A stretch of DNA of 64,000 nucleotides from the IMG/VR virus record IMGVR_UViG_3300028388_004019, positions 64,001 through 128,000 of that record. One strand, written 5' to 3'. The stretch comes from a virus. Of the stretch, positions 1 to 13,848 are shown in pieces (position 1 is the stretch's first letter; each line of letters begins with the position of its first letter). A program made the position numbers and the translations under genes. The notes beneath the pieces were generated by a model. The model searched no databases. It worked only from the letters and a program-made list of their open reading frames with translations, and was not told where the DNA came from.

Positions 1-3000
1 CACTGTTTGTGTCGGGGTAATTGTAGCAGTTGGAGTAACTGAAGATGTTGGAGTGACTGATGATGTCGGAGTATTAGTCGGAGTGACCTCAGGCGTTGAA
101 GATGCCGTCACAGTCTGTGTAGGGGTAAATGTTGGAGTAACCGTGGCAGTTACAGTCGGTGTAATACTTGCAGTCGGTGTTACCGACGCAGTAACAGTTT
201 GAGTGACAGAGGCAGTTGGAGTAACCGACGCAGTAGATGTCACCGTTTGTGTTGGTGTATATGTCGGAGTAACTGAAGGTGTCGGTGTTACCGACGCAGT
301 TGGTGTTGGTGTTGGAGTCGGAGCAATGAATATAACCTCAACGGGACATGTACACGCACTCGTATTAACATCAGTAATACCCCAAGTACTAATAGTCTCA
401 CCCGGAGGTAAAATGGAATTAAAATTATATTCAATTTGATGTTCATTAACCGGCATCGTTCTCACACCTGAATATGTGAATCCTGAACTACCTGTCATGA
501 AACCTGATATCTCATAATCACATAGTGATTCTGCAGGGTCCGTTAATGCAGCATCATTCCAAAGATTAATTCTAATCTTATCACCCTGGACAATGTAACC
601 AGCAATATACTGTGTTGTCTGTGGACATGTTGCCGATGGAGTTACCGTCTGTGTTGGAGTAATCGATGCAGTTGGAGTAATTGATGATGTCGGCGTTACA
701 GATGCAGTCGGGGTAACCGTTTGAGTAACTGAGGCGGTTGGTGTAACACTTGCAGTCACTGTTTGTGTCGGAGTAATTGTTGCGGTTGGCGTTACTGACG
801 ATGTTGGTGTTACAGAAGATGTTGGCGTATTAGTTGGAGTCACTGCAGGAGTTGAAGATGCAGTAACCGTTTGTGTCGGGGTAAATGTCGGAGTGACCGT
901 GGCAGTTACCGTTGGTGTTATTGATGCAGTAGGGGTAAACGTAGGTGTTACGGTCGCAGTTACTGACGGGGTAATAGATGCCGTAGGTGTTACTGATGCA
1001 GTTGGTGTAACAGAACTTGTAGGTGTATTAGTTGGAGTAACAGTATTAGATGGTGTTACGGTATTGGTCGGAGTCACACTTGCGGTTGGTGTGACAGAAG
1101 ATGTTGGAGTATTAGTTGGTGTAACTGCAGGGGTTGAAGAAGCAGTTACTGTTTGTGTCGGAGTAACCGTCGCAGTCCTTGTAGGTGTAACCGTTGGCGT
1201 TACTGATGATGTAGGTGTAAATGTCGGGGTAACAGTTGCGGTTCTTGTCGGCGTTACCGATGGAGTAACTGTTGATGTTGCAGTTACAGACGGAGTCGGA
1301 GTAACACTTGCGGTTGGTGTTACCGATGATGTCGGAGTGTTTGTAGGAGTAACACTCGAAGTTGGTGTAACTGAAGAAGTCGGCGTATTTGTTGGAGTTA
1401 CAGTATTAGAAGGGGTAACCGTATTTGTTGGAGTCACACTCGCAGTTGGAGTAACCGACGATGTCGGTGTATTTGTGGGTGTTACCTGAGCAGTCTGTGT
1501 AGGTGTATGTGTTGGTGTTACAGTAGATGTCGCAGTTACCGATGGTGTTGGAGTAACAGATGAAGTTGGAGTTACAGAAGCAGTAGGAGTATTTGTAGGT
1601 GTTACCGTATTAGTTGGAGTAACCGATGCGGTTGGTGTTACTGATGATGTTGGTGTATTTGTCGGAGTAACACTTGCCGTTGGGGTGACAGTAGAAGTCG
1701 CAGTAACCGAAGGTGTTGGTGTATTTGATGAAGTCGGTGTATTAGTTGGAGTTACCGCTGCCGTTTGTGATGGTGTCACAGATGCAGTTGGAGTATATGT
1801 TGGAGTAACAGTCGCAGTCCTTGTTGGCGTAACAGTTGGAGTAACTGAAGACGTTGGTGTAAATGTTGGTGTAACCGTATTAGATGGAGTAACAGTATTC
1901 GATGGTGTAACTGATGATGTAGGAGTATTTGTAGGTGTAACCGTATTAGATGGAGTAACAGTATTCGATGGTGTAACTGATGATGTAGGAGTATTTGTAG
2001 GGGTAACAGTATTTGACGGAGTTACAGTATTTGTTGGAGTATACGAAGGTGTTACCGTATTTGTTGGGGTAACCGATGCAGTTGGCGTAACTGAACTGGT
2101 TGGTGTATTCGTAGGCGTAACAGTATTTGTTGGAGTATACGAAGGTGTTACCGTATTTGTTGGGGTAACCGATGCAGTTGGCGTAGCAGTTCTTGTCGGT
2201 GTCCTTGTAGGACTTACCGATATCGAAGGAGTAACTGAAGGAGTAACCGTCGCGGTTCTGGTCGGTGTTCTAGTAGGACTTACTGAAATAGAAGGCGTAA
2301 CCGTTGCAGTTCTCGTAGGGGTCCTTGTAGGTGTTCTAGTAGGACTAACCGAAATAGAAGGCGTAACCGTTGCAGTTCTGGTCGGTGTACGTGTTGGTGT
2401 TGGTGTAGGTGATGGACATGACGGACACTCCCCATAACCACAAATACTCTCAATCCAGTTTGGTGCAGGTATAAATAAATCAGGAATACCAGTACTCGTA
2501 GATGTTATCTGATAACACGCATTATTACCAAATGGATTAATAACACCATCACCCTGAAATAATACCGTACCTGATGTTGTTGACGCAATGAAAGTATCAT
2601 TAGAGTCACAACAATTAACCATTAAATACTTATCAACAGCTGGTGTTGAAGTCGGTGTCGGAGTACGAGTTGGAGTACTCGTTGGAGTTCTTGTTGGAGT
2701 TCTTGTTGGTGTACGAGTTGGTGTCGGTGGTATTGTCGTAGGTGTAGGAGTAGGTGTCGGCGTTACAGGTGTGTCACCACAACATTCTGTACATGTTTGA
2801 TATGCAGTTGCACTACAAGTCTCCACAGGTTCACAATCAGGAACAATACCTTCAACAAAGTAACAACAACCATCACAGTTATCTAACTTAACAACTTGAC
2901 CAGCATTTGGACATGGACTTATATTAAGGGATACAAATTGACCAGAGTATTGATAGTTACATGTTCCACAAGCTTCTGGGTCAATATCAATACAAGGGAT

Positions 3001-3774
3001 AAGGAATGCACAACAGGTTTGATTAAGATTCATTATATCATAACCAACACCAGGTTCCATACCAGGTTCATAAGGTGTTGGAGTACCCTCACCCTCACAT
3101 TCTTCACAATTATTAAATGTCTGTACTACACTACCAATAAAACTAATATTAGCTTCTGAACAATTTTCAGCACATGAACCTGACCTGAAAACCTCCCAAC
3201 AAACATTAATATTATCAACAAAAGCCTGACCTACTTGAAGATTATAAACATTTTGTATACAGGCAACAGAACTTCTCGTCCTACAATCTCTAATACAAAC
3301 ATAACCTACATTGTGAACAATATACCCATCTAAGATATAGTAATTAGGACCACTAAGAGAAAGGTTATAGATTGGGTCGAAAGAATATACAATCTCTTTG
3401 GATTCAACAGGTTCGTGAATAACCTCACCGTCAACCATTTTAACCATATCGTATTCACCCCCAACAACTAAACTTATGGTGGAAACAAATTGATATTTTT
3501 CTTTGGTTTTGTGGTACGCTAATACGTGTTCATCAATAACACCCAACCCATTAATCTGAAGGTAATTACCCGATTCTTCTAATATCTCGGTAACCTCAGG
3601 AGATTGGACATTATCAACATTAATGGTAGGAAATTGGACCTCACGGAAGTCAACGCCGTTAACAATTTCAGGTATATCAAAAGAAAACAGTTGGTCCCCT
3701 AATTGAATATCTTCAATATTCTTTACGGAACCATCTGATAATAATACTTTCTGTCCTAACTTATAACCTGCCAT
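1..3774 (-). CDS. Large Hint-domain, Cys-rich, Thr/Pro-repeat (mucin-like) protein; 3'-partial, >1258 aa, absent from the supplied ORF track
   Basis: Translated by hand from ATG at 3774: MAGYKLGQKVLLSDGSVKNIEDIQLGDQLFSF...GVIDEHVL...IYNLSLSGPNYYILDGYIVHN|VGYVCIRDC..., then Cys-rich modules, long TPT/SVTP tracts and a globular domain (~330-630). No stop in the segments translated; the frame is open at base 1. TATTTATA motif 18 nt upstream. Confidence 0.9.
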   Translation of the reverse strand, partial: MAGYKLGQKVLLSDGSVKNIEDIQLGDQLFSFDIPEIVNGVDFREVQFPTINVDNVQSPEVTEILEESGNYLQINGLGVIDEHVLAYHKTKEKYQFVSTISLVVGGEYDMVKMVDGEVIHEPVESKEIVYSFDPIYNLSLSGPNYYILDGYIVHNVGYVCIRDCRTRSSVACIQNVYNLQVGQAFVDNINVCWEVFRSGSCAENCSEANISFIGSVVQTFNNCEECEGEGTPTPYEPGMEPGVGYDIMNLNQTCCAFLIPCIDIDPEACGTCNYQYSGQFVSLNISPCPNAGQVVKLDNCDGCCYFVEGIVPDCEPVETCSATAYQTCTECCGDTPVTPTPTPTPTTIPPTPTRTPTRTPTRTPTSTPTRTPTPTSTPAVDKYLMVNCCDSNDTFIASTTSGTVLFQGDGVINPFGNNACYQITSTSTGIPDLFIPAPNWIESICGYGECPSCPSPTPTPTRTPTRTATVTPSISVSPTRTPTRTPTRTATVTPSISVSPTRTPTRTATVTPSVTPSISVSPTRTPTRTATPTASVTPTNTVTPSYTPTNTVTPTNTPTSSVTPTASVTPTNTVTPSYTPTNTVTPSNTVTPTNTPTSSVTPSNTVTPSNTVTPTNTPTSSVTPSNTVTPSNTVTPTFTPTSSVTPTVTPTRTATVTPTYTPTASVTPSQTAAVTPTNTPTSSNTPTPSVTATSTVTPTASVTPTNTPTSSVTPTASVTPTNTVTPTNTPTASVTPTSSVTPTPSVTATSTVTPTHTPTQTAQVTPTNTPTSSVTPTASVTPTNTVTPSNTVTPTNTPTSSVTPTSSVTPTNTPTSSVTPTASVTPTPSVTATSTVTPSVTPTRTATVTPTFTPTSSVTPTVTPTRTATVTPTQTVTASSTPAVTPTNTPTSSVTPTASVTPTNTVTPSNTVTPTNTPTSSVTPTASVTPTASITPSVTATVTPTFTPTASITPTVTATVTPTFTPTQTVTASSTPAVTPTNTPTSSVTPTSSVTPTATITPTQTVTASVTPTASVTQTVTPTASVTPTSSITPTASITPTQTVTPSATCPQTTQYIAGYIVQGDKIRINLWNDAALTDPAESLCDYEISGFMTGSSGFTYSGVRTMPVNEHQIEYNFNSILPPGETISTWGITDVNTSACTCPVEVIFIAPTPTPTPTASVTPTPSVTPTYTPTQTVTSTASVTPTASVTQTVTASVTPTASITPTVTATVTPTFTPTQTVTASSTPEVTPTNTPTSSVTPTSSVTPTATITPTQTV
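1868..1999. repeat. Exact 66-bp tandem duplication inside the Thr/Pro tract
   Basis: 1868-1933 is identical to 1934-1999 (ggtgtaaccgtattagatgg...aggagtatttgta). Confidence 0.9.
2024..2185. repeat. Exact 66-bp direct repeat, offset 96 bp
   Basis: 2024-2089 is identical to 2120-2185 (acagtatttgttggagtatacgaagg...gcagttggcgta). Confidence 0.85.
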
Positions 3775-3820: not shown

Positions 3821-6181
3821 TCAGGATTCTTTCCTCAAACTTCCGTCGTAATGGTCAAATCTATCGTGTTCAGTCGGACTTAATAACAAGATACCTGGTT
3901 TAATGTTACCCTTGATTGTTTCTTGGAACATATAAGACATCCAAGTTTGCTCATAAGGACGAGCCCATTTCTCCGTTAAGAACATCTTTTCATTACCGTA
4001 TTTCGATACAATCTGAGGCCAGTTACAGTAATAAATCTCACCATGTGCAAATGGTATTCCTTGGAATGTGTCTATTTTAGTGATTTTAGTTTTTGGTGCG
4101 TTAGGGTCCAATCCTTGAACAGGTAGATTTGGTTTTTCTGGCCAATGTTCTTCCCTAATATGTTGTGGAACATTATACCACGCCCATTGAACCGTATTGT
4201 CACCATAAAATTCTGTATAAGATAACTTTAAGAAATCAAAGTTGTTTTTCTTTGCAATTTTTAATGAGTTTCTGTATAGATTCTTCACATATCTGTTGAA
4301 TCCATTCTTACAAACCTCACCTTGTTTTGGATAGAAGAACATATCATCTTCAAAGAAGAAATAATAATCAAATCCTCTCTCCTCAGCATCCTCAGCAACC
4401 CACTGACGACCACCACAAATACCTAAGTTGTCTTTCTTAACATAAATCATATTATATTCTTTTGCCAACTCTTCATATTCAGGTGATGTCGATAAATCTG
4501 TTGAATTATCTAAGACAACCCATTGAGGTTTCGTCACAAAATCCTCATCATATTGTTTCATCGACTCAATCAATGTTTTTATCTGATTTGGACTATTAAA
4601 TGTAATAACATATAAACCTACATTGGTAATATCTAAATCATTTTTGATTACCTCAAACCTCATCTCATCCATCGGTTTGTGTCTATCCTGTTTGACATCC
4701 TCAAAGAACTTATTAATCAACCCATTCCCTTCGATTGGGAAGTATTGGTAGTTCTCAGGGTATCTATATAACAATAAGGTAAATAGAGACTCCTCAGTAC
4801 CCATATAACCCTGATTAAGGGTGGATTTCATAATACCGTAATACTCATTATTAAAATCAGCAATATCTTCAATAGGACCACCAAAGAACCCACCACGACA
4901 AACTTTATTGACTTTAGCATTTGCAATCTCATTCATCTTATTAATCTCGAAACCGTGAATCTCAGTATTCGATTCATAAGGGAACGCAATGAAAGTCATC
5001 TTATCAATCTTTGTCAACTTATCCAATACTCTATCATGTGTAAAGTAACCTGAATGTACGGTATTAGTAATACCAGCATCCAACCAGAATAAGTGTGTTG
5101 AACCAAACTTATCCATAATCTTAGCATCGTGTAACAAATATGGTTTTGACATCACCAATGGATTGTACATATCCAATCTACCTTGAGTAGATTCTGATAA
5201 CCATCCCACCTGATTTTGCCATTCAGGGTTTGTACGAATGTTTTGAATTGGTTCATAGAATTCTCCTTTGAACCACTCTTGGCTACGACTGATGAACTGT
5301 GTTGTCTCATCTGACCTTCTCTCCATAACAAAATCCCTTAATTCCTCATCACCAAATACAATCATGTTGTAAGGTATCTTAAGAATTTCATCAAATTTTT
5401 TTAAATAATGTTCAAAACTACGTGACCAACCTTCCGCTAATTCATCACGTTTAATGTTCCATAACCCTGTTACTATAGTAATTCCGTTGTTTTCCATTTC
5501 TCCGTAAAGTTCTTTATAAATGTATTTTTTTATTCCGACGATATCTCCGCCCTCAAGACCATAAACATAATCATGTTGGTCAAATTTTTGAATGATATTT
5601 TGTTGGTCTTCTTCTTCCAAACTTCCCCACTCTATTCTAACAATCTTTGGTGAATGTCTTTCAAAATCAATTTGTTTGAAGATAACATAGTCATGACCTT
5701 CAGCATCAATTTTAATAACATCATAATCAATGATTTCATGCTTATTTAATAATGAATCTAAGGTGATTGTTGGAACCTTAATTCTCACTCCATATTTTTC
5801 TACAGTATCTCTATCACCTTCACTAGCCAAACCATTTTTTGGTGGATATATTGCACTCATACCCATAAAACAATGGTGGATATCTTTATTTTCAATAGCA
5901 AAAGGATTGATGGTTAACATTTCAACCTCACCATTTTTATCAGACACCGCAGAGTTTTCAAACTTATGTTTGTCACCCAAATTCTTCACCAGTTTATGAA
6001 AGTAATAAGGAATCGGTTCCACATATAAACCTGTGAAATCATATGCGTTGGTATACCCGATTAATTCATCAAATGTTTGTCCGTCCATCGCACCAATATT
6101 AAGTGTAAACAATTTATGTCCTTGTTTACCCAAATGGTGAAGTGCGTGATTGAAATAATCTGTTTTTTCTAATTGAATCAT
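3821..6181 (-). CDS. Three-domain fusion: FkbM-family methyltransferase + HtrL/YibB(WlaTC)-type glycosyltransferase + GT-A (GT2-like) glycosyltransferase, 786 aa
   Basis: N-term LNIGAMDG..GLYVEP..TLDSLL..VIKIDAEGHD (FkbM); middle TIVTGLWNIKR..FWLDAG..RGGFFGG..MGTEESLF (HtrL); C-term YVITFNSP..VLDNS..NLGICGGRQ..YFFFEDD (GT-A). Confidence 0.75.
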   Translation of the reverse strand: MIQLEKTDYFNHALHHLGKQGHKLFTLNIGAMDGQTFDELIGYTNAYDFTGLYVEPIPYYFHKLVKNLGDKHKFENSAVSDKNGEVEMLTINPFAIENKDIHHCFMGMSAIYPPKNGLASEGDRDTVEKYGVRIKVPTITLDSLLNKHEIIDYDVIKIDAEGHDYVIFKQIDFERHSPKIVRIEWGSLEEEDQQNIIQKFDQHDYVYGLEGGDIVGIKKYIYKELYGEMENNGITIVTGLWNIKRDELAEGWSRSFEHYLKKFDEILKIPYNMIVFGDEELRDFVMERRSDETTQFISRSQEWFKGEFYEPIQNIRTNPEWQNQVGWLSESTQGRLDMYNPLVMSKPYLLHDAKIMDKFGSTHLFWLDAGITNTVHSGYFTHDRVLDKLTKIDKMTFIAFPYESNTEIHGFEINKMNEIANAKVNKVCRGGFFGGPIEDIADFNNEYYGIMKSTLNQGYMGTEESLFTLLLYRYPENYQYFPIEGNGLINKFFEDVKQDRHKPMDEMRFEVIKNDLDITNVGLYVITFNSPNQIKTLIESMKQYDEDFVTKPQWVVLDNSTDLSTSPEYEELAKEYNMIYVKKDNLGICGGRQWVAEDAEERGFDYYFFFEDDMFFYPKQGEVCKNGFNRYVKNLYRNSLKIAKKNNFDFLKLSYTEFYGDNTVQWAWYNVPQHIREEHWPEKPNLPVQGLDPNAPKTKITKIDTFQGIPFAHGEIYYCNWPQIVSKYGNEKMFLTEKWARPYEQTWMSYMFQETIKGNIKPGILLLSPTEHDRFDHYDGSLRKES

Positions 6182-6363
6182 TAACTAATTACAATAAAGT
6201 TTTTCTGCCACCCTTTATACTCAGTCCAAGTCTTACCCAAAAGTTCCGCAGTTTCAACTGCAAAATTGTATTCGTCTTCTCTGTATGTATCATCCATAAT
6301 AATTGGTACTGAAGTGTCCAATCCCTTTAACTTAGGGAAAATATAATTCAAAACTATATTCAT
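6181..6363 (-). CDS. 60-aa ORF resembling the isolated C-terminal end of a class I SAM methyltransferase (possible remnant)
   Basis: IIMDDTYREDE resembles the IVLDDxxRxxE end of Methyltransf_24-type enzymes. Coupled to its neighbours by ATGA and TAATG overlaps. No SAM-binding motif I. Confidence 0.4.
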   Translation of the reverse strand: MNIVLNYIFPKLKGLDTSVPIIMDDTYREDEYNFAVETAELLGKTWTEYKGWQKNFIVIS

Positions 6364-7238
6364 AATTGTTCAAAGAATTTGTAGAAGCTGATTTTACCCT
6401 CCAAAAATTCAGGTGTGACCGATTTATCAGTTAAGTTTGAGTCATCGTGGTACCACGTATTAAACTTAAAACTATTATAATTTTCAGGTTTGTCATAAAC
6501 CATTGTAGACATCATCGCCTCATGGTTCAAAAGAAACTCCTTATCCAAACACACCTGAGCGTAATTCTCAAACCTTTCAAAAAAGTCGGGTAACTTACTC
6601 ACATGACCACCAATAATACCACCAATAGATAAAGAATCATAGTTGTGGTCTTTCTCCAAAATATCATTCAATTTTCTGTGGTCGTGGAAGAATAATGTGT
6701 TTCTAATATCAATTAATCTATCACCGACCCAATTATTGATTTTGTTAAATAATAAAGTATTGAAAATACCATCGTAAGTATACCGATATTTATTCACAGA
6801 TAATCCAGTAATTTTATCAGCATTTGAGTTATACCGTCTCGGATATAAACCAAGATGTGATAATCCACAATCTATCCAATATAGATAATCAATCCCTTCT
6901 TCCATCTCATCTTCCATCAAAGCAATTTTAGCCCATCCGACTTCCAAATAAAATTTGAATTTATCAGGATTTTTTTCTTTAATTTCAATCATCTTTTTAC
7001 TATGACGAATATCTTCAAGTTCTTTGACTTTAATTGTTACATTATCTACCTGATTTTCATCCATATAGTTTTGTAACGCTTCTGCCGTGTTAGAACCTGT
7101 ATAACAAACAATCGGTAAACCCATTTCAGATAGTTGAACCAATGAATTGATGTACCTATCCCAACGAGCTTGAACCTTATGACCAAAGAAAGGGAAATCA
7201 CCCAAACCAAAATATAAAAAAGTTACTAATTTTGTCAT
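6360..7238 (-). CDS. HtrL/YibB (WlaTC)-type putative glycosyltransferase, 292 aa
   Basis: TKLVTFLY..PIVCYT..AKIALM..YLYWIDCGLSH..GGIIGG..NHEAMM; same architecture as the middle domain of 3821..6181. Confidence 0.65.
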   Translation of the reverse strand: MTKLVTFLYFGLGDFPFFGHKVQARWDRYINSLVQLSEMGLPIVCYTGSNTAEALQNYMDENQVDNVTIKVKELEDIRHSKKMIEIKEKNPDKFKFYLEVGWAKIALMEDEMEEGIDYLYWIDCGLSHLGLYPRRYNSNADKITGLSVNKYRYTYDGIFNTLLFNKINNWVGDRLIDIRNTLFFHDHRKLNDILEKDHNYDSLSIGGIIGGHVSKLPDFFERFENYAQVCLDKEFLLNHEAMMSTMVYDKPENYNSFKFNTWYHDDSNLTDKSVTPEFLEGKISFYKFFEQL

Positions 7239-8806
7239 TTTCTAAAGTAATAATCCTCTAATAAGAGACAATCCATTTCTGTTTTATCATAGACTTTTAA
7301 AGCATCTGAGTATCTTGAAAGAATAGGTTTACCGTTCACATTGAATGATGTATTTAATAAAACACCAATTCCTGATTTCTCTTCAAACTCAGTCAATAGG
7401 TTATACAACCAAGGATTTTGTTCTTCTGTAACTGTCTGAACTCGAGCAGTACCATCAACATGAGTAATCGAAACTAATTGCTCTCTCCACTCTTCTCTTA
7501 CCGTTGGACAAAAACTCATCCATCTACTCTCACCTTCGAAATCAAAGTATTTTTCAACATCTTCTAATTTACAAACTGGTGCAAATGGTCTGTACCATTC
7601 TCTATTTTTAACCTTCGCATTTAGAATATCTTTCATATCAGGATACGCTGGATTACAAATGATACTACGATTACCTAAAGCTCTCGGTCCATGTTCTGAC
7701 GTACCTCTTACAACACCAACAATTTTTCCATTGGATAAATCATCAGTCAAACTATCCATAGTCAACTCACGTCCTCGTCTTTCTTCAACGTGAGACATTA
7801 ATGTATGTCTGTCGAGAATCGGTACACCAGCATAAGTCACGTCAACCGCAGTTGCTGGTTTCATATGATTCAAAATCATACCAGTTGCAATACCACAGTC
7901 ATTTGGGTTAGGTGGAACAAACACAGGACGGTCTAATATCTGTTGTAGTTTGGTATTAAGAAGTATGTTAAGAGCACATCCACCAACTGTAATCAACGGG
8001 ATATCAGGATATTCATCCAAGAATGGTTGAGCCATCTCCATGAAAACATTTTCGAAGGCAATTTGTGAAGTTTTAGCAACGTCCCATCCTGTTTGTCCTG
8101 TAAATCGGTTATTCATATCGAAAACCAATCCTGTTTGTTCACCTAATTCACCCAAAAAATCGATATAGTTCAAACCATCGGGTTTTCTTCTATAGTAATT
8201 TTCGAAGTGTGGTAACCAATCTTCATTTACCTCACCATAAGAACATAGTCCCATGATTTTACCAGAATATACTAAGTTACCAATATTTAATGCGGGTTCC
8301 TTACGAATATCACCCAAATAATCACCAAATGACATATAAGGGAAACCTAAATCTAAATTATATTTGTCCAATAAGGTTATAGTTTCTCTATCAGACGCAT
8401 GATATACATTGAAGAAACCGTCATTACCACCTCCATCGAAAGAGATTATCAACGCTTCATTATAATCAGTCTGATATAAACCACAAGCCGCGTGACTCAA
8501 ATGGTGAAGACAGTTGATATGTTCTTTAGCAGGAATAAGTTTTTCATAGTGAACCTTAGTTCCACTTTCTAAAGTATCTGAGTTCAAGTAATAACACTTT
8601 TCATACTCAGAAATACCATATTCATCTTCGATAAATTTCAAGATATGTTTAAGTAGATAAGGTCTTGTATATGAAACCAAATACTGAGCATAACCAGCAT
8701 TCTTTTCACTCAAAAATCTTTCTACTTCAATTACTGTAATTAATTCTCCATTCTCCTCAACCGCAACCGCCGCGTTGTGAGAACCATAAAACGCAATATT
8801 CGCCAT
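7235..8806 (-). CDS. O-carbamoyltransferase, NodU/CmcH/TobZ family, 523 aa
   Basis: HHLSHA, SFDGGG, GKIMGL, GGCALN, PNDCG, GPRALGNRSI, KVKNREWYRPFAP, HVDGTARVQTV, LLNTSFN. Confidence 0.92.
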   Translation of the reverse strand: MANIAFYGSHNAAVAVEENGELITVIEVERFLSEKNAGYAQYLVSYTRPYLLKHILKFIEDEYGISEYEKCYYLNSDTLESGTKVHYEKLIPAKEHINCLHHLSHAACGLYQTDYNEALIISFDGGGNDGFFNVYHASDRETITLLDKYNLDLGFPYMSFGDYLGDIRKEPALNIGNLVYSGKIMGLCSYGEVNEDWLPHFENYYRRKPDGLNYIDFLGELGEQTGLVFDMNNRFTGQTGWDVAKTSQIAFENVFMEMAQPFLDEYPDIPLITVGGCALNILLNTKLQQILDRPVFVPPNPNDCGIATGMILNHMKPATAVDVTYAGVPILDRHTLMSHVEERRGRELTMDSLTDDLSNGKIVGVVRGTSEHGPRALGNRSIICNPAYPDMKDILNAKVKNREWYRPFAPVCKLEDVEKYFDFEGESRWMSFCPTVREEWREQLVSITHVDGTARVQTVTEEQNPWLYNLLTEFEEKSGIGVLLNTSFNVNGKPILSRYSDALKVYDKTEMDCLLLEDYYFRK

Positions 8807-10074
8807 TATAATGTACCTGTTAGTCTATCACACCATCCTTTTGAAGTTGAATAAGGCCAAACAACCCAATAAGCTGGTTTTTCAGTTATGTTAAATTGTC
8901 TCCAAACTTTACAGTAACCGTCAGGGTCATTCATCATACGGTCAATCTCTGCTCTGTCTGCATCCTTTCTGTAAATAGTGTTATCTTCCTTATCGTGGAA
9001 AGCAACAACCCAATATTCATAATCTTTCTCAGGAACTTGCTCATAACCAACATCAATACAATGTTTGTAAATAGTCGCAAAACTCTCCAACCATTCTTCT
9101 TTCGACACATATGAATCAATACCTGGGTTCGGTGGGTAGTTTTTATCTAAAGTGTATTGTTGTACACCTCTTTTACTGAATTTCAAACCTGAAAACTCTT
9201 CATATTCTTCCAAAGACCTCGTTGGACCAAACCCGTATTTACCTTCGTGACCTTCTTGAGATTCACCATCCATACCAAATAATTTTCTATTTGTTAAGTG
9301 TGAAGTATTGTTTTTACTGACCCAATCTTTATCATCATCCCATTGTTTAGTTCTACCTTTACGAGTATATTCGTGCCAAATCAAAACTTTGTGTGGATGG
9401 AACATATCATATCCCCATGTAAACGCTCTCGCCGCGATTGAAATCTCTTCCCCGTGGAAGTAGTACTCAGGATTGTGTTGAACCTCATTACTGAATTCAC
9501 CCAATGTGAAGCAGAAATGTGCCGAGTAAAATCTTGCAGGAACAGGTGTATCCAATTCTCTCCAACCTGGTATAGTCTCAGGTAAAAAGAATACCGCACC
9601 TTCAGGAATGAAACGGTCAAAGACCATTCTCCACGGTTCTTGCACTCTCGCCGCTGGGTCATTATCAGGGTCAAATGATGAAACATAACCTGTCAATAAA
9701 GGTTTCGGAATACCCATACCTTGTAAATCTTTGACCATCTTAATCATCTCCACGTCCCAATTTTTCTCAAATCTCATGTGTGAATCAATCTGTAATGTAT
9801 ACATTTCCCCGTCATACATCTGTTGAATCTGATTTCTTGCCCAACAGGCACCTTTAGACTCTTCATAAGGAACATCCATTATTCTGAATCTCTCATCATC
9901 ACGGTACTTGTCAAGGTTATCAAATCCATCTTCAGGATGGTATTGTCTACAAATCCCCAATATAACATTTTGGGGTCTTTTTGCGTTTTTTAACATATCT
10001 TCTATAGTTGGGACCAACTCAGGGTCTCGATATGACGCAATCTGTACGAAAATTTTCTGTGCTCTTCTTGCCAT
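8806..10074 (-). CDS. GT60-like (Gnt1/OGNT, GlcNAc-transferase) glycosyltransferase with an extra ~90-aa C-terminal domain, 422 aa
   Basis: IFVQIASYRDPEL..GACWARN..YTLQIDSHMRF..NWD..FYSAHFCF..YFHGEEISIAARAFTWGYD..HEYTR. Start moved to ATG 10074. Confidence 0.8.
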   Translation of the reverse strand: MARRAQKIFVQIASYRDPELVPTIEDMLKNAKRPQNVILGICRQYHPEDGFDNLDKYRDDERFRIMDVPYEESKGACWARNQIQQMYDGEMYTLQIDSHMRFEKNWDVEMIKMVKDLQGMGIPKPLLTGYVSSFDPDNDPAARVQEPWRMVFDRFIPEGAVFFLPETIPGWRELDTPVPARFYSAHFCFTLGEFSNEVQHNPEYYFHGEEISIAARAFTWGYDMFHPHKVLIWHEYTRKGRTKQWDDDKDWVSKNNTSHLTNRKLFGMDGESQEGHEGKYGFGPTRSLEEYEEFSGLKFSKRGVQQYTLDKNYPPNPGIDSYVSKEEWLESFATIYKHCIDVGYEQVPEKDYEYWVVAFHDKEDNTIYRKDADRAEIDRMMNDPDGYCKVWRQFNITEKPAYWVVWPYSTSKGWCDRLTGTL

Positions 10075-10088
10075 AATTTTAATGTTTG

Positions 10089-10102
10089 TAATAAGAATAA
10101 TC
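10089..10102 (-). promoter_or_regulatory. Putative second-class (early/middle) promoter element GATTATTCTTATTA
   Basis: 12/14 identical to GACTATACTTATTA upstream of the SSB gene (51183-51196). Confidence 0.35.
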
Positions 10103-10125
10103 AAAGATTATTTAAGATAAAGTGA

Positions 10126-10133
10126 TATTTATA
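10126..10133 (+). promoter_or_regulatory. TATTTATA motif on + strand, 3 nt before the ATG of the only + strand gene
   Basis: Motif orientation follows gene orientation. Confidence 0.65.
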
Positions 10134-10136
10134 GAT

Positions 10137-10310
10137 ATGAAACTTCTAAAAACAATAAAACATTTAGTACAAGAGTCGGAAGAAAACTTGGAAAACGCAT
10201 TACATACTAATACGTCACCGAAAGAACTTAAGGCTTTAGAAGAAAACTATACTGAATCTTTGAATCTACTTTCATTATTTGAAAGTTTAGAGCAAGAAAA
10301 AGAGGACTAA
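10137..10310 (+). CDS. Small acidic helical hypothetical protein, 57 aa
   Basis: MKLLKTIKHLVQESEENLE...; fills the intergenic gap and has its own TATTTATA motif. Confidence 0.65.
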   Translation: MKLLKTIKHLVQESEENLENALHTNTSPKELKALEENYTESLNLLSLFESLEQEKED

Positions 10311-10328
10311 TTTCTTAACCCTCTTTTT
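10297..10328. terminator. Possible terminator between convergent genes
   Basis: aaaaagagg...cctcttttt inverted repeat followed by a T run; large loop. Confidence 0.35.
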
Positions 10329-10354
10329 TTATCACTTTTCTTTATATTGTTTTA

Positions 10355-13300
10355 TTATTGTTGTGTATATTCAACTTCAATCTTATCAACATCAATTCTT
10401 TCCGCCTGAATAAAGTAGTAACAGTCAATCTTATTACTGAATAGGTTACCATTCTGAATATATACCACCCAATCCTTAATCTCTTTAACATATAAGTTTT
10501 GGTGTGAACCTACTGAGGTCAACTGAACAGTAATTGAATCAGGGTCAACCAAATCCTTCCAATATTCAGGAAGTTCGATTTCCTTATCATTCAATTGTCT
10601 ACCTCTAATATAGATACCGTGTTCAGGACCCTCCAAGTTACCATGCTTCAACCTCATACCCTGTTCTTTCTTCTCAGAGTTCGGGTGTGGAATGTCGAAG
10701 GCTTTGGATGTTGCCATTAAGTTTCCTTGACCGTCTACACTAAATACTCTTGCTCCACCCGCCTCATAACCTGAAACAAGGAATGTATTTGGGTCTGATG
10801 AATCCAATTCTAATACATTATCATAAGTTTCGTCGGCTTCAATCATAACTCTTGTTAAACTTCTGTTAGCCTGTGTAGTTTTTCTAAATTTCGTATTAGC
10901 CGCTCCTGTAGTTTTGAATTCTAAATTATTACCGTTTTGTGTAACTGTTCTGGCTGCCGATAAAGTTCCATCAGAACTATAGATATTCGTATTACCTGCG
11001 GAAGTTATATATCCAGCATCATTATTAAATCCACTGTTATTAATGTTACCTTTGGTAAGTTTCTTTTGATTGTTTGATGAATCAACCACCACAAAGAAAT
11101 CACCATCATCATTCGAAGTCGATGTAGTCAATTCAGATAAATCAACAGAGATAGTATCAGCGGCGACATCAATACCTGTACCAGCACCTACGTTTAGAGT
11201 TATAGAACTACCCAAAGAAACAGAACCACCGTTAGTAAGACCATTTCCTGCGAAAACCGTAAGTGAAGAATTTGCCAATGAAGAGTTAGGTACATTAGAT
11301 AATCCTAAGGCTATCGTACCACTTGTTGTAATTGGTGACCCTGAATCCACATCTATACCATCAGACCCTGAGATTGCTACTGAGGTCACAGTACCACTCG
11401 AATTCGTATATGGTAAGTCAGATATCAAACCTTTCTTAACATTATTGTCCGTGGCATCGTGATAGATGATAGTATCAGTAAGTGCAATGCCTGTACCTTC
11501 TAAATCCGTTGCAGAATTTATAAAGTTATTAGTACCCGAGTAATCTAATCCAACAGTATTAGCCGCTACAGAAACACCCGTACCTGCACCTACATTTAAG
11601 GTTGTCGAACCACCCAATGAAACAGAACCACCGTTAGTAAGACCATTTCCTGCGGTTACCGTAAGTGAAGAATTTGCAAGTTTCGCATTGGTTACATTAG
11701 CATCTGTAATCTTTACAGTAGTTACTGCATTTGTGGCTAATTCAGCGGTATTGACGACACCCGCATCAATCGAAGCATTTAATTGTACGTCCGTAGAACC
11801 ATCGAAGGAAATTGCTGATGCGGTAATATCACCTGTAATCGAGAAGTTTCTCGGTGCTTCTAAGGTTGTTGCGGTTCCAGCATTACCATCAAGATTTCCT
11901 TGTACATCACCTGTAAGTGGACCAGTTATGGAGTTGAAAGATACATCATCACCCGTGGCTACTGATTGGTCTTGACCACCCAAATATCCCCATTGTGCTG
12001 CTGATATCGTAGTTGTACCGATATTTGCTAATTGAGTAGCCTCTGCCGATGTCATTGAAACACCTTGAATCTTAGTGACTGTACCGTTTAATGAAACGTT
12101 ACCAGTACCATCGAAAGATACATTGGATGCCGTAACATCTCCAGTAATTGAAAAGTTTCTTGCAGTCTCAAGTGCTGTCGCGGTGTCCGCATTTCCAGTG
12201 ACATCACCTGTCACATTACCAGTAACATTACCAGTAACATTACCTGTAAGGTTACCACTGAAGGCTGTAGATGTAACCGAAGTGAGACCTGCGAGTGTTG
12301 TTGAGGACGCACCTAAATCAATACTTGTACTACCAATAGTCACACTGTCATTTGATAAAGCACTATTTGGAATGTTTGACCAAAAACCTGTAATATCTTG
12401 TGCTGAAGAACCATCATTCAACCCTAAAGAGAGACTTCCTGAAGTGAAGGTTCCACCTGTTACATATGTATTAACGGAATTACCTACTGTTAAATCAATC
12501 GTATCTGTTCCTGAATTACCCACAATGGTTACAGTACTGTCAGAAGACGTAAAGTTCAGAGTACCACCCAATGGTACAACAGGGTCAGAACCTGAAGGTG
12601 CATTCACAGTAAATGACGAATTTGAAAGTGAAGAATTAGGTACATTTGATAAACCTAAGGCTATTGTACCGTTTGTCGTAATCGGCGAACCTGAATCAAC
12701 ATCAATACCATCTGAACCTGAAATTGCTACCGAAGTTACAGTACCTTGATTATTTGAAAACGGTAAAGCTAAAACATCATAATATAATACATTGTTAGAT
12801 GCATTACTAACAGGTATGTGCCATGATGTTTGTATGTCACCAGTACCTGCTCCTGAGGCTAAAATATAATTGTCTGTTCCTGCGTAGTCGAGAGCTACAT
12901 CATTCGTGTTTACTACGATACCAGTACCCGCACCCACATTCAATGTAGTTGAACCACCTAAGGAAACTGAACCTCCATTGGCTAAACCATTACCAGCACT
13001 TACCGTAAGTGAAGAATTTGCAAGTTGAGAATTAGTTATCTGTCCATTACTTACATCAGCAATGATGTCATCACCAGTAATTTGACCACCTAATGAGATG
13101 TCAGAACCCGCAATATCAATCGATGAATTAGCTAATGAAGTATTTGGAACATTAGATAAACCTAAAGTAATTGTTCCACTTGTTGTTATTGGTGAACCTG
13201 AATCAACGTCAATACCATCAGTACCACTAATAGCTACTGAAGTAACTGTACCTGAGTTATTAGAGAATGGTAAATCAGAAATTAAACCTTTCTTAACATT

Positions 13301-13744
13301 ATTATCTGTAGCATCGTGGTAAACAATAGTATCAGAAGTTGCGATTGAAGTTCCTTCTAAGTTAGTTGCCGAGTCAATAAAGTTGTTTGTTCCCGAATAA
13401 TCAAGAGCCACATCATTAGCGTTTACAACTATACCTGTTCCTGCACCAACGTTAAGTGTTACAGAACCGCCTAAAGAAACTGAACCTCCGTTCGCTAAAC
13501 CTGAACCCGCAGTCACTGTAAGTGAAGAATTGTCTAAAGATGCGTTTGGAATAGTGCCGAAAGAGAGAGCGCCCGAACCATTAGTCAATAATACCTCATC
13601 AGCAGACCCATCTGAAGTTGGGAATGTATATGCTGAATTAAATTCTATAACACCACCCGTTGAAATGTTGATACGGGTAGTCGTATTTGTTCTAAGATTC
13701 AATCCTGAACTATTACTATAATAAACTCCGTTATGGTTTGCCAT
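10355..13744 (-). CDS. Tail fibre-like protein with internal repeats and a C-terminal chaperone-like domain, 1129 aa
   Basis: Gly/Ser/Thr-rich repeats NSSLTV.AG.GL.NGGSVSLG (x4) and VTSVAISG.DGIDVDSGSPITT.GTI.LGLSNVPN (x3); C-term KAFDIPHP..LKHGNLEGPE..RG..IELPEYWKDLV..ITVQLT. Confidence 0.8.
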   Translation of the reverse strand: MANHNGVYYSNSSGLNLRTNTTTRINISTGGVIEFNSAYTFPTSDGSADEVLLTNGSGALSFGTIPNASLDNSSLTVTAGSGLANGGSVSLGGSVTLNVGAGTGIVVNANDVALDYSGTNNFIDSATNLEGTSIATSDTIVYHDATDNNVKKGLISDLPFSNNSGTVTSVAISGTDGIDVDSGSPITTSGTITLGLSNVPNTSLANSSIDIAGSDISLGGQITGDDIIADVSNGQITNSQLANSSLTVSAGNGLANGGSVSLGGSTTLNVGAGTGIVVNTNDVALDYAGTDNYILASGAGTGDIQTSWHIPVSNASNNVLYYDVLALPFSNNQGTVTSVAISGSDGIDVDSGSPITTNGTIALGLSNVPNSSLSNSSFTVNAPSGSDPVVPLGGTLNFTSSDSTVTIVGNSGTDTIDLTVGNSVNTYVTGGTFTSGSLSLGLNDGSSAQDITGFWSNIPNSALSNDSVTIGSTSIDLGASSTTLAGLTSVTSTAFSGNLTGNVTGNVTGNVTGDVTGNADTATALETARNFSITGDVTASNVSFDGTGNVSLNGTVTKIQGVSMTSAEATQLANIGTTTISAAQWGYLGGQDQSVATGDDVSFNSITGPLTGDVQGNLDGNAGTATTLEAPRNFSITGDITASAISFDGSTDVQLNASIDAGVVNTAELATNAVTTVKITDANVTNAKLANSSLTVTAGNGLTNGGSVSLGGSTTLNVGAGTGVSVAANTVGLDYSGTNNFINSATDLEGTGIALTDTIIYHDATDNNVKKGLISDLPYTNSSGTVTSVAISGSDGIDVDSGSPITTSGTIALGLSNVPNSSLANSSLTVFAGNGLTNGGSVSLGSSITLNVGAGTGIDVAADTISVDLSELTTSTSNDDGDFFVVVDSSNNQKKLTKGNINNSGFNNDAGYITSAGNTNIYSSDGTLSAARTVTQNGNNLEFKTTGAANTKFRKTTQANRSLTRVMIEADETYDNVLELDSSDPNTFLVSGYEAGGARVFSVDGQGNLMATSKAFDIPHPNSEKKEQGMRLKHGNLEGPEHGIYIRGRQLNDKEIELPEYWKDLVDPDSITVQLTSVGSHQNLYVKEIKDWVVYIQNGNLFSNKIDCYYFIQAERIDVDKIEVEYTQQ

Positions 13745-13780
13745 TTTATATGTTTTCTCTTTCTTTTATTTTTTGGCTAT

Positions 13781-13800
13781 GGGGGAGGGTTAACTCCCCC
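13781..13800 (-). promoter_or_regulatory. GC-rich hairpin in the predicted 5' leader of the 1129-aa fibre gene
   Basis: GGGGGAG-6 nt-CTCCCCC lies between the TATTTAT motif (13815-13821) and ATG 13744; no U-tract on either strand. Confidence 0.5.
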
Positions 13801-13814
13801 AATCATATCTAATG

Positions 13815-13821
13815 ATAAATA
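13815..13821 (-). promoter_or_regulatory. TATTTAT motif
   Basis: ataaata on + strand in the intergenic gap. Confidence 0.6.
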
Positions 13822-13848
13822 CTTTTCAAATAATTTATAGTGTATAAA

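Follow-up and report, generated by a model that had tools for sequence, protein, structure and literature searches.

The window, that is, the whole 64,000-nt stretch of DNA analysed here, comes from an uncultured aquatic phage of ~300 kb, of which the available record holds 184 kb (~60% complete). Within its tail-fibre module we identified an operon of four intact, partly overlapping enzyme genes plus the remains of a fifth, on the minus strand throughout (Table 1), 46 nt upstream of the gene for a 3120-aa Thr/Pro-rich protein. A preliminary description had reported a five-gene operon; start and stop codons do overlap at three junctions (TAATG, ATGA and TAATG, including the TAATG in which the carbamoyltransferase start overlaps the GT60 stop), and the fifth gene proved to be a 47-codon remnant. 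The six enzyme domains named there are all real, as judged from Pfam, hhalign, AF2/Foldseek models and alignment.

Table 1. Features of the operon and the surrounding tail-fibre module
Feature	Coordinates	Strand	Product	Basis
Thr/Pro-rich protein, N-terminal part	1..3774	-	1258 of 3120 aa; whole gene at genome 58412-67774	Translation
FkbM + HtrL + GT-A fusion	3821..6181	-	786 aa	Pfam, alignment, model
3' remnant of deleted gene	6181..6321	-	175 aa when intact	tblastn
HtrL-like GT-A glycosyltransferase	6360..7238	-	292 aa	Profile match, GT-A model
O-carbamoyltransferase, NodU/TobZ/NovN type	7235..8806	-	523 aa	PF02543, PF16861
GT60-family glycosyltransferase	8806..10074	-	422 aa from ATG at 10074; ORF 8806-10104	PF11397
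Two tail-fibre/minor-tail-like genes	10355..16806	-	1129 aa, 985 aa	PHROG matches
Thr/Pro/Ser-repeat protein	18548..21481	-	977 aa, ~600 residues of repeats	Translation
Thr/Pro-rich protein	21547..28251	-	2234 aa	Translation
Baseplate J/wedge gene	40906-42744			

The first enzyme of the operon matches PF11397 (E 4e-68, 230.8 bits against a Pfam cut-off of 21), which bears out its earlier assignment to GT60. It contains an IDSH (DxH-type) motif, of which D107 and H109 are invariant among 20 homologues, and no hydrophobic segment. Relatives are numerous: IMG/VR holds 410, more than 5,000 clusters at 50% identity match GT60 at E <= 0.001, and in some metagenomic relatives four GT60 domains are fused to proline-hydroxylase-type 2OG domains. 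The adjacent carbamoyltransferase carries both Carbam_trans_N (E 7e-18) and Carbam_trans_C (E 6e-64) and finds 7xb6, NovN (9s2t) and TobZ (3ven) in the PDB by sequence (E 1e-48 to 1e-44).

Two further proteins supply three GT-A domains. The 292-aa protein has no Pfam match, and its family profile aligns with the HtrL domain of the 786-aa protein (hhalign, 98.4%, E 9e-15); its AF2 model (pLDDT 91) is a GT-A fold resembling GT8 XXYLT1, GT6 ABO transferases and LARGE1 (Foldseek probability 1.0, TM ~0.5). In the 786-aa protein, Pfam places FkbM at residues 29-207 and HtrL_YibB at 234-480, and the C-terminal ~270 residues (about 520-786) form a second, GT2-like GT-A domain; a WxDxG motif and, in this C-terminal domain, an EDD motif are invariant in our alignment (A3). 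The AF2 model (pLDDT 86) retrieves the two-GT-A enzymes LH3, mimivirus R699, ColGalT1, K4CP, LARGE1 and PmHS2 (Foldseek E 1e-10 to 1e-7). Between these two genes, a 178-nt gap (6182-6359) contains the last 47 codons of a 175-aa gene, at 81% identity to the intact copy at L006:13739-14266; it is also intact in the relative L009, and ~390 nt present in L006 are missing from the window. The intact gene has no Pfam match, and its GxGxG-type motif suggests that it may encode a methyltransferase.

The surroundings of the operon are structural. Three genes separate it from those for the 977-aa and 2234-aa proteins, two of them with tail-fibre or minor-tail PHROG matches (phrog_13892, minor tail protein, E 6e-33; phrog_7389, tail fibre protein), which places the operon inside the tail-fibre module. 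An earlier statement that it lies directly between Thr/Pro-rich genes holds for the abutting 3120-aa gene; the other two are 8.4-18 kb upstream. Where ~1,700 residues of Thr/Pro/Ser repeats had been claimed, we counted 1836 STP-rich residues across the three window genes (744 + 608 + 484, in the order of Table 1; T 32-39%, P 18-20%, S 13-18%), and the complete 3120-aa protein has 2070. In the 2234-aa protein, PT linkers join Cys-rich modules, and a PT tract of ~300 residues lies close to the C-terminus. None of these PT proteins has a recognised virion domain, and it is their gene position that suggests they are virion appendages. We propose the 3120-aa protein as the main acceptor of a glycan made by the operon and the 977-aa and 2234-aa proteins as further acceptors. 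The ATG of the 3120-aa gene is preceded at 19 nt by a TATTTATA motif; the motif is absent before the operon, though present before neighbouring structural genes, and co-expression with these is therefore only putative, a point against such a role.

Comparison with related phages adds a further level of information. In 79 of 80 related IMG/VR loci, the GT60 gene and a ~556-aa HtrL/GT-A protein, equivalent to the last ~556 aa of the 786-aa protein, flank a hypervariable cassette as its conserved 5' and 3' bookends. Between them lie 0-8 genes from 49 clusters in 32 architectures, with cluster representatives from GT25, GT10, GT2, GT7C/GT2-like, PLOD-GT, FkbM and carbamoyltransferase families and sub-threshold matches to the GT1 group (Glycos_transf_1) and GT11. 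The GT60 and the two-GT-A protein are thus a fixed core, and the genes between are swapped freely among related phages: the family of the 292-aa enzyme (cluster c0) is the commonest accessory (63/79 loci), and the carbamoyltransferase is restricted to 8 of 79. The 79 cassettes contain no flippase, polymerase or lipid-carrier transferase, and TM-like segments are missing from the four window enzymes and from 282 cassette ORFs of relatives.

The co-occurrence of the operon with Thr/Pro-repeat genes, put forward earlier as a check, was found in several separate settings. Among the aquatic phages of this clade, an STP-rich ORF immediately neighbours the cassette at 32 of 40 non-redundant loci, and such ORFs make up 35/78 immediate neighbours versus 6/127 ORFs genome-wide; the remaining 8 loci have none, which counts against the proposed role. 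Bacteroidota and their phages often have PT linkers, and the cassette is invariably located inside the fibre module; the adjacency within this clade is therefore in part inherited synteny and not a set of independent events. Beyond this clade, the operon is present at 45-48% identity in the XacN1-type Xanthomonas and Stenotrophomonas jumbo phages XacN1, Xoo-sp13 and CM1, which are absent among the baseplate matches of the source phage. Their genomes are rich in TPTPTP repeats, with 29, 26 and 19 coding sites, respectively (controls, 0-1), and there are 0 such sites in three phages that encode the nearest baseplate protein and lack GT60.

XacN1 offers a described parallel. Its ORF334-ORF330 (Yoshikawa et al. 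2018, PMC5852040) are orthologous in the same gene order at 31-47% identity, comprising the GT60, carbamoyltransferase, HtrL-like and HtrL/GT-A genes, and this genome is likewise rich in PT tracts. XacN1 differs in lineage and host phylum, its carbamoyltransferase has a 240-aa C-terminal extension, and in place of the window's fused FkbM domain it has a separate ORF of 246 aa. Its authors observed at least two periodic-acid-Schiff-positive protein bands in virions and proposed only two glycosyltransferases for them, ORF328 and ORF334, without linking the operon to PT-rich proteins (PMC5852040). This Schiff stain, whose bands carry no protein assignment, is the sole direct chemistry for the source phage or any relative, a scarcity that counts against the proposed role.

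The system is indeed phage-encoded, as first described, yet not phage-specific, since close bacterial counterparts exist. The cassette is shared with chromosomes of Bacteroidota (Saprospiraceae, Leadbetterellaceae) and Gemmatimonadota, where the ORF directly adjoining it encodes a single Thr/Pro-rich protein bearing an export-type signal; it has probably been exchanged between phages and hosts. All TPTPTP sites of Jiulongibacter sediminis (5/5) and of an Arcticibacterium genome (8/8) fall within one gene adjoining the cassette. Less favourable are a Lewinellaceae genome whose TPTPTP count equals the control and the finding of an STP-rich ORF at only ~10 of the ~24 bacterial loci that have adequate flanks, under a strict filter. 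The bacterial PT proteins have an N-terminal RR motif, a T9SS sorting domain in one case and a PqqD domain in those of Gemmatimonadaceae, which points to polypeptide substrates made in the cytoplasm. Hundreds of related phages, the Xanthomonas jumbo phages and bacterial chromosomes thus share this pairing of the enzymes with a Thr/Pro-rich protein.

When these results are taken together, we consider it probable, at about 70%, that the operon is a cytoplasmic protein O-glycosylation cassette whose substrates are the phage's own Thr/Pro-rich fibre-like proteins. This interpretation, which agrees with the preliminary description, is supported by comparison rather than chemistry, through the gene content and fold classes observed for the locus, its conservation and variability, and its genomic association. 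From the soluble enzyme set, the Thr/Pro stretches of the fibres most likely receive a sugar chain that is carbamoylated and methylated; the donor sugar, acceptor residue, order of steps, virion location and benefit given below are what we infer. The GT60, as proposed initiator, would place a first HexNAc, probably alpha-GlcNAc from UDP-GlcNAc, on Thr/Ser hydroxyls of the Thr/Pro-rich tracts while the fibre-like proteins are still in the host cytoplasm. The three GT-A domains would then extend the glycan, the TobZ/NodU-type enzyme would O-carbamoylate a sugar hydroxyl, and the FkbM domain would methylate one. As the middle of the cassette is swapped freely between phages, each phage would display its own glycan, and the fibres might thereby become stiff, protease-resistant, antigenically variable or adhesive.

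The characterised eukaryotic members of GT60 provide a guide to the acceptor. They belong to the same family (PF11397, 230 bits) with a conserved DxH-type motif, and, to our knowledge, all of them act on polypeptides: Dictyostelium Gnt1, soluble and cytoplasmic like the phage enzyme, modifies hydroxyproline of Skp1, and Dictyostelium pp-alphaGlcNAcT2 and Trypanosoma cruzi OGNT modify Thr/Ser of mucin-like domains. Thr-rich mucin-like tracts are the likely acceptors here too. The phage enzyme, whose activity is predicted, differs in its phage or bacterial setting and in sharing an operon with HtrL-type GT-A enzymes as well as carbamoyl- and methyltransferases. The suggested hydroxyproline route was not borne out: a search of the source genome found no prolyl 4-hydroxylase partner, its 2OG oxygenases resemble collagen lysyl hydroxylases, and Thr/Ser is thus the likelier acceptor.

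LPS-core loci are the best-known setting of HtrL, GT25 and GT9, the last present in XacN1, which counts against a protein acceptor. It could be speculated that in infected cells the cassette remodels an envelope glycan of the host, such as the LPS/LOS core or a capsule precursor built at the cytoplasmic face of the inner membrane, perhaps as a superinfection block or receptor change, with the PT-rich neighbours coincidental. Besides these families, a UDP-glucose dehydrogenase and an epimerase near the Jiulongibacter locus would fit, and as LPS-core transferases are also soluble or peripheral, the missing TM segments are compatible with it. We nevertheless regard it as unlikely, given the polypeptide-directed GT60 members described above, 79 cassettes lacking lipid-carrier, flippase or ligase genes, the glycoprotein bands in purified XacN1 virions, and the two bacterial genomes whose sole TPTPTP-repeat gene adjoins the cassette, which a polysaccharide pathway does not explain.

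A comparably low probability attaches to the view that the cassette acts mainly on Thr/Pro-rich surface proteins of the host, which would be what the bacterial homologues naturally modify, and less on phage proteins, altering the host surface or hijacking host glycoproteins. The single exported PT-rich partner of the bacterial versions is in keeping with this, and Saprospiraceae/Lewinellaceae GT60s nest within the phage clade (100/99 support), so that phage enzymes may still recognise host substrates. However, six ORFs of the phage itself together encode ~4,700 STP-rich residues, each ORF within ~11 kb of a glycosyltransferase cluster and one starting 46 nt after the operon, and 79 of 80 loci have their cassette inside the fibre module.

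That the cassette hypermodifies phage DNA by attaching an oligosaccharide to hydroxymethylated bases seems highly improbable. Diverse glycans do decorate phage DNA (Pyle et al. 2024, cited in PMC12619734), the XacN1 operon adjoins DNA polymerase, RNase H and NUDIX genes, and the C-terminal GT-A domain of a bacterial homologue shows a below-threshold match to the TET-associated glycosyltransferase family (18 bits, cut-off 27.5). Yet BssHII, NaeI and SpeI digest the DNA of XacN1, a carrier of the orthologous operon (PMC5852040), no thymidylate-synthase-type hydroxymethylase was found in the 184 kb of the ~60% complete record, and the same cassette adjoins signal-bearing PT proteins in bacterial chromosomes. 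Equally remote is a product unattached to protein, namely a soluble glycoside with carbamoyl and methyl groups that would serve as a secondary metabolite or a Nod-factor-like signalling oligosaccharide: small-molecule pathways are the best-known context of NodU/TobZ/NovN-type carbamoyltransferases and FkbM methyltransferases, and jumbo cyanophage clusters with carbamoyltransferases have been so interpreted (PMC7824862), but aglycone, NRPS/PKS, acyl and export genes are absent from every cassette, and the carbamoyltransferase is optional while GT60 and PT neighbours are constant.

Protein O-glycosylation of the phage's own fibres would have several precedents. Serine-rich-repeat adhesins of Gram-positive bacteria (Fap1, GspB, PsrP) similarly receive a cytoplasmic HexNAc, O-GlcNAc initiated by GtfA/GtfB, on a fibre-like surface protein with very long repeats of hydroxy amino acids, extended by strain-variable glycosyltransferases encoded beside the substrate gene. 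The phage locus stands outside that system: it has GT60 in place of GT4 GtfA/B, no accessory SecA2/Y2, and Thr/Pro-rich instead of Ser-rich repeats. Mycobacteriophages, as summarised in PMC12619734, also modify their own structural proteins in the host cytoplasm with phage-encoded enzymes, although these are unrelated glycosyltransferases and attach the glycans to short tails at the C-termini of capsid and tail-tube subunits (Freeman et al. 2023), in contrast to the kilobase-scale mucin-like tracts, GT60 initiator and hypervariable cassette of the source phage. Chlorovirus PBCV-1 and mimivirus are eukaryotic viruses without a GT60 initiator, with N-linked glycans on Vp54 and hydroxylysine-linked ones on collagen, respectively. 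Their glycans are likewise virus-encoded and host-independent, glycosyltransferase and methyltransferase domains share one protein in A064R, and mimivirus, with its fibril glycosylation and R699/L230 collagen enzymes, provides in R699, as does LH3, a fold resembling the two-GT-A core of the 786-aa protein.

The four intact minus-strand genes between 3821 and 10074, joined by stop/start overlaps (TAATG, ATGA and TAATG), probably encode a cassette that glycosylates the phage's own Thr/Pro-rich (PT-rich) structural proteins, a reading to which we assign a probability of about 0.7. That the cassette is directed at O-glycosylation of PT-rich proteins in general would be the safer claim, and it is held with greater confidence. 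The preliminary description had reported six domains in five genes and proposed that the phage builds a carbamoylated, methylated O-glycan on its own mucin-like proteins, with a GT60 enzyme as initiator. The observation holds, and comparative genomics supports the interpretation; all six domains are real (Pfam, hhalign and AF2 models), and the supposed fifth gene turns out to be only a stump. The 175-aa gene from which the stump derives is intact in two close relatives (IMG/VR loci L006, at 13739-14266, and L009) and may encode a methyltransferase, as a GxGxG-like motif suggests. Decay and rearrangement of the cassette are evident even between phages whose DNA is about 88% identical. FkbM is split from the HtrL protein in L006 (164 aa and 632 aa), and the two form a single 786-aa fusion in the window.

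Coordinates of the features discussed (window positions unless marked genome or given with a locus)
Feature	Location	Strand	Remarks
GT60 glycosyltransferase	8806-10074	minus	PF11397, E 4e-68
O-carbamoyltransferase	7235-8806	minus	PF02543 + PF16861
292-aa protein	6360-7238	minus	no Pfam match; HtrL-like by profile
Stump of 175-aa gene	6181-6321	minus	last 47 codons remain
786-aa protein	3821-6181	minus	FkbM + HtrL_YibB domains (Pfam)
GC-rich hairpin, then T-run	~10300-10340		after 1129-aa gene
Two tandem ~205-aa 2OG-Fe(II) oxygenases	genome 46,800-48,172 (L091)		outside window
Two ~1,100-aa PT-rich genes	genome 145246-151821		~4.5 kb from second glycan locus
Second glycan locus	genome 156,390-169,377 (L090)		outside window
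XacN1 ORF232-237	XacN1 124,048-133,104 (L092)		six consecutive genes
Bacteroidota PT-rich ORF	L113:6941-7729		beside cassette
Bacteroidota PT-rich ORF	L126:6645-7625		beside cassette
Bacteroidota PT-rich ORF (Saprospiraceae)	L094:6528-7673		beside cassette
Bacteroidota PT-rich ORF	L099:6696-7577		beside cassette
Bacteroidota PT-rich ORF (Lewinellaceae)	L101:5997-7751		beside cassette
Gemmatimonadaceae PqqD protein	L111:7272-7997		32 bits vs cut-off 23.4
Gemmatimonadaceae PqqD protein	L112:826-1356		sub-threshold
Phage-like arrangement, Saprospiraceae	L115:319-12493		on 3.0-Mb contig

The initiating enzyme is by sequence a member of GT60, matching PF11397 with 230.8 bits (cut-off 21) over profile positions 96-350 plus 2-43. 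Its IDSH motif (D107, H109), which we take to be the catalytic metal-binding DxH/DxD-type motif of GT27/GT60 enzymes, is invariant in 20 homologues and is kept in all four GT60 domains of the metagenomic protein P0124. Characterized GT60 enzymes all glycosylate polypeptide hydroxyls and, to our knowledge, are confined to protists; transfer of alpha-GlcNAc from UDP-GlcNAc to protein hydroxyls by the phage enzyme is putative, with genomic association with PT-rich proteins as its backing. The O-carbamoyltransferase fits the NodU/CmcH/TobZ type both in its two-domain architecture (Carbam_trans_N, E 7e-18; Carbam_trans_C, E 6e-64) and in its homology to the solved O-carbamoyltransferases (TobZ, NovN and 7xb6, E 1e-44 to 1e-48).

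Neither GT60, searched alone and as a 20-sequence profile, nor the 292-aa and 786-aa proteins matched PDB sequences, and folds were therefore taken from AF2 models. The 292-aa model (pLDDT 91) has a GT-A fold closest to GT8 XXYLT1, GT6 ABO transferases, and LARGE1, and its family profile matches the HtrL domain, at profile level only (hhalign 98.4%, E 9e-15). Within the 786-aa protein, FkbM (PF05050) occupies residues 29-207 with 65.4 bits (cut-off 22.7), HtrL_YibB (PF09612) scores 49.8 bits (cut-off 24.1), and the last 556 residues form two tandem GT-A domains (pLDDT 86) that resemble LH3, mimivirus R699, and ColGalT1, as well as chondroitin polymerase K4CP, LARGE1, and heparosan synthase; the motifs WxDxG and EDD are invariant. 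No membrane-like hydrophobic segment was found in the window's four enzymes or in 282 cassette ORFs of relatives.

The GT60 protein has 410 relatives in IMG/VR, and in protein collections it matches more than 7,000 90%-identity clusters of the 8,000 candidates scored and 5,361 50%-identity clusters at E <= 0.001; some relatives are on contigs of about 300 kb (299-305 kb). At 79 of the best 80 IMG/VR loci (72-96% identity), GT60 and an HtrL/GT-A protein of about 556 aa flank a variable region of 0-8 genes, which falls into 49 sequence clusters and 32 architectures. Cluster representatives include GT25, GT10, GT2, GT7C/GT2-like and PLOD-type glycosyltransferases, FkbM methyltransferases, and carbamoyltransferases; matches to Glycos_transf_1 and GT11 are weaker and fall below threshold. 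Among accessory genes, the HtrL-like 292-aa family is the most frequent (63 loci), and a carbamoyltransferase is present in only 8 loci. Genes for a flippase, a polymerase, or a lipid-carrier transferase are absent from the cassettes. Taken together, these features mark a soluble enzyme set that builds oligosaccharides step by step, with a constant initiator and core and a periphery that diversifies.

Four lines of evidence suggest that the acceptor is a Thr/Pro-rich protein. The expected co-occurrence of GT60 with PT genes in relatives was borne out, an STP-rich gene lying immediately before or after the cassette at 32 of 40 non-redundant loci; 35 of 78 cassette neighbors are STP-rich, versus 6 of 127 ORFs in this genome, and these neighbors are not all mutually homologous. 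A PT tract fused to GT60 was found in none of 150 GT60 cluster representatives. The operon also occurs in the Xanthomonas and Stenotrophomonas jumbo phages XacN1, Xoo-sp13, CM1, and RAS14 (45-48% identity), which form a separate lineage, as XacN1-type phages are absent among the baseplate-protein matches of the window phage. When XacN1, Xoo-sp13, and CM1 were scanned, 29, 26, and 19 TPTPTP-coding sites were found, respectively, and 0-1 with the reversed-pattern control; those of XacN1 are spread over many ORFs and lie inside an STP-rich tract in all nine such ORFs translated. The phages nearest by baseplate (an uncultured 484-kb phage, Microcystis phage Mel-JY01, and Flavobacterium phage immuto) have neither GT60 nor a single TPTPTP site.

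The sole data here on a putative virion-protein glycan come from purified XacN1 virions, which give at least two periodic-acid-Schiff-positive protein bands whose proteins are not named, and whose staining the authors proposed to arise from their two annotated glycosyltransferases (PMC5852040). That paper is the only one we found that touches the locus, and it does not tie the operon to PT proteins (PMC5852040); searches on GT60 in phages, jumbo-phage fiber glycosylation, and HtrL function returned nothing beyond it, and nothing was found on proteomics of Xoo-sp13, RAS14, or CM1. Six consecutive XacN1 genes, ORF232-237, are annotated merely as hypothetical. ORF232-236 each have a central PT tract of 70-150 residues (four are of 430-528 aa, and ORF236 is of 746 aa), and ORF237 contains TPTPTP-coding sites. 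The six may be a family of glycosylated fiber or decoration proteins.

The genome of the window phage offers candidate acceptors of its own. The viral record (183,755 bp, with an estimated completeness of about 60% in IMG/VR), of which the window covers bases 64001-128000, is that of a jumbo-size, myovirus-like phage with genes for baseplate J/wedge, ribonucleotide reductase, a DnaB-like helicase, and a UvsX-like recombinase; a 10-kb piece of the window had no megablast match among 50,697 phage records. Two genes upstream of the operon match minor-tail and tail-fiber PHROGs, which places the operon in a tail-fiber module, and the 3120-aa Thr/Pro-rich gene begins 46 nt downstream. The window's three Thr/Pro-rich genes account for 1836 STP-rich residues. 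As no Pfam domain was found in the PT proteins and the only PHROG match is phrog_15511 (unknown function), in two of them, neither search marks them as virion proteins. It is possible that the cassette acts on PT proteins of the host instead; against this, six of the phage's own ORFs across the record code for about 4,700 STP-rich residues, and each of the six lies no more than about 11 kb from a glycosyltransferase cluster. Remodeling of host LPS or LOS is also possible, in that HtrL, GT25, and GT9 belong to families of core loci, whose transferases are likewise soluble, but it leaves the PT association unexplained.

The GT60 cassette is also chromosomal in bacteria, where UvrB, NIF3, and Omp85-family neighbors confirm a cellular context. 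At five Bacteroidota loci, a divergently oriented PT-rich ORF adjoins GT60, and all five proteins carry a conserved N-terminal RR-containing signal, NRR[KL]A[LI]..., assigned by eye as Tat-like. The Saprospiraceae protein has a T9SS sorting domain at its C-terminal end (PF18962, 32 bits), and the Lewinellaceae protein has a sub-threshold match only. This suggests that such proteins may be glycosylated in the cytoplasm, then exported by Tat and displayed on the surface through T9SS. The PT-rich protein beside the Gemmatimonadaceae cassette has an N-terminal PqqD (peptide-binding, RiPP-recognition-type) domain. All genomic TPTPTP sites fall inside the PT gene beside the cassette in Jiulongibacter sediminis JN14-9 (5 of 5; 4.5 Mb) and in an Arcticibacterium genome (8 of 8; 5.2 Mb), and the signal is weaker or absent in two higher-GC bacterial genomes. 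Hypermodification of phage DNA by the cassette is unlikely, as chromosomal copies beside signal-bearing proteins would be senseless for such a function, and neither mark of DNA glycosylation systems was found: XacN1 DNA is not restriction resistant, being cut by BssHII, NaeI, and SpeI (PMC5852040), and a hydroxymethylated-base pathway is not indicated by any PF00303 hydroxymethylase in the 184-kb, partial record, a weak test.

In the maximum-likelihood GT60 tree, the chromosomal enzymes of Saprospiraceae, Lewinellaceae, and Bacteroidia (60-72% identical to the window enzyme) form a clade nested within aquatic phage sequences with 100/99 support, and those of Leadbetterellaceae, Gemmatimonadota, and the XacN1 group branch farther out. 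The nesting shows recent gene exchange, in one direction or the other, between aquatic phages and Saprospirales-type bacteria; the tree was rooted at midpoint only. Saprospirales-type bacteria are plausible as hosts. Several MAG-binned contigs that are short and low in GC may themselves be phage fragments. A phage-like arrangement is seen within a large Saprospiraceae contig (L115), where two PT-rich proteins (1845 aa and 673 aa), whose Cys-rich modules resemble those of the window fiber proteins, lie directly upstream of GT60, and a 1087-aa protein with a sub-threshold FkbM match and GT32-like domains lies downstream; the arrangement may represent a prophage or a module that was captured.

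Hydroxyproline had been raised beside Thr as an acceptor, and the search for a prolyl hydroxylase in the 184-kb record, about 60% complete, found two small 2OG oxygenases, both of which fall below the PF13640 cut-off. The better-scoring (first) of the two, the one used in the PDB search, matches the human collagen lysyl hydroxylase LH3 (E 1e-26) and also the mimivirus L230 LH domain. It looks more like a lysyl hydroxylase than a prolyl 4-hydroxylase, which makes direct transfer to Thr/Ser the better guess from a genome of this completeness. Two metagenomic proteins, P0124 (2461 aa) and P0126 (1641 aa), have several PF11397 repeats fused to proline-hydroxylase-type 2OG-Fe(II) oxygenase domains (Pfam), a putative link of the Rosetta-stone type between GT60 and protein hydroxylation. 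The four tandem GT60 domains of P0124 are 33-36% identical to the phage enzyme (BLASTP). A peroxiredoxin-like domain is also present in P0124.

The closest working likeness is the glycosylation of serine-rich-repeat protein (SRRP) adhesins in Gram-positive bacteria, where HexNAc is added in the cytoplasm to long hydroxy-amino-acid repeats and then variably extended. However, the GtfA/GtfB GT4 pair and accessory Sec are absent from the operon and from the 79 related cassettes; the window's cassette is not a member of that system, and the resemblance is functional only. Mycobacteriophage virion glycosylation and the self-encoded glycans of chloroviruses and mimivirus have their principle in common with the window system, which differs from them in enzyme families, in the scale of the mucin-like acceptor, and in its hypervariable cassette. 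We know of very few cases of glycosylated phage particles. A wider proposition, on which we are evenly divided, is that of a hitherto unrecognized prokaryotic mucin-type O-glycosylation, in which GT60 would act in the cytoplasm as the initiator on Thr/Pro-repeat proteins. Bacteroidota and Gemmatimonadota would use it on single exported proteins, and at least two jumbo-phage lineages would have captured it; in these the hypervariable cassette would give each phage its own fiber glycocalyx. If so, aquatic jumbo phages of a very abundant group, to which more than 400 IMG/VR contigs and metagenomic protein clusters in the thousands belong, would wear a variable sugar coat on mucin-like fibers, and common environmental bacteria would use the same chemistry. 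Host range, adhesion, or evasion of recognition could depend on such a fiber glycan, adding a new layer to phage-host recognition and phage antigenic diversity. Mucin-type O-glycosylation would then reach prokaryotes and their viruses, and the soluble enzymes would be a natural toolbox for glycosylating Thr/Pro linkers in the bacterial cytoplasm. Two cultured systems that carry the cassette, phage XacN1 and J. sediminis JN14-9, lend themselves to direct tests of the idea.

The motif TATTTATA, considered as a late motif, lies upstream of several structural genes. One copy is 19 nt from the start codon of the 3120-aa gene (3793), and others precede the genes that start at 18522, 43215, and 63592; on the strand of the GT60 operon itself, the operon has none. 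The nearest, at 10126 on the plus strand, faces the opposite way and serves a small ORF of about 60 codons that begins a few bases later and diverges from GT60, and it says nothing about the timing of the operon. A GC-rich hairpin followed by a T-run is seen after the 1129-aa gene. A second glycan locus elsewhere in the genome, with two of the six PT-rich ORFs close by, encodes two sulfotransferases, a GT-D-like protein, a UDP-glucose dehydrogenase, GT1 and GT2 enzymes, and an 823-aa protein that combines GT2-like, GT4, and pyruvyltransferase domains.
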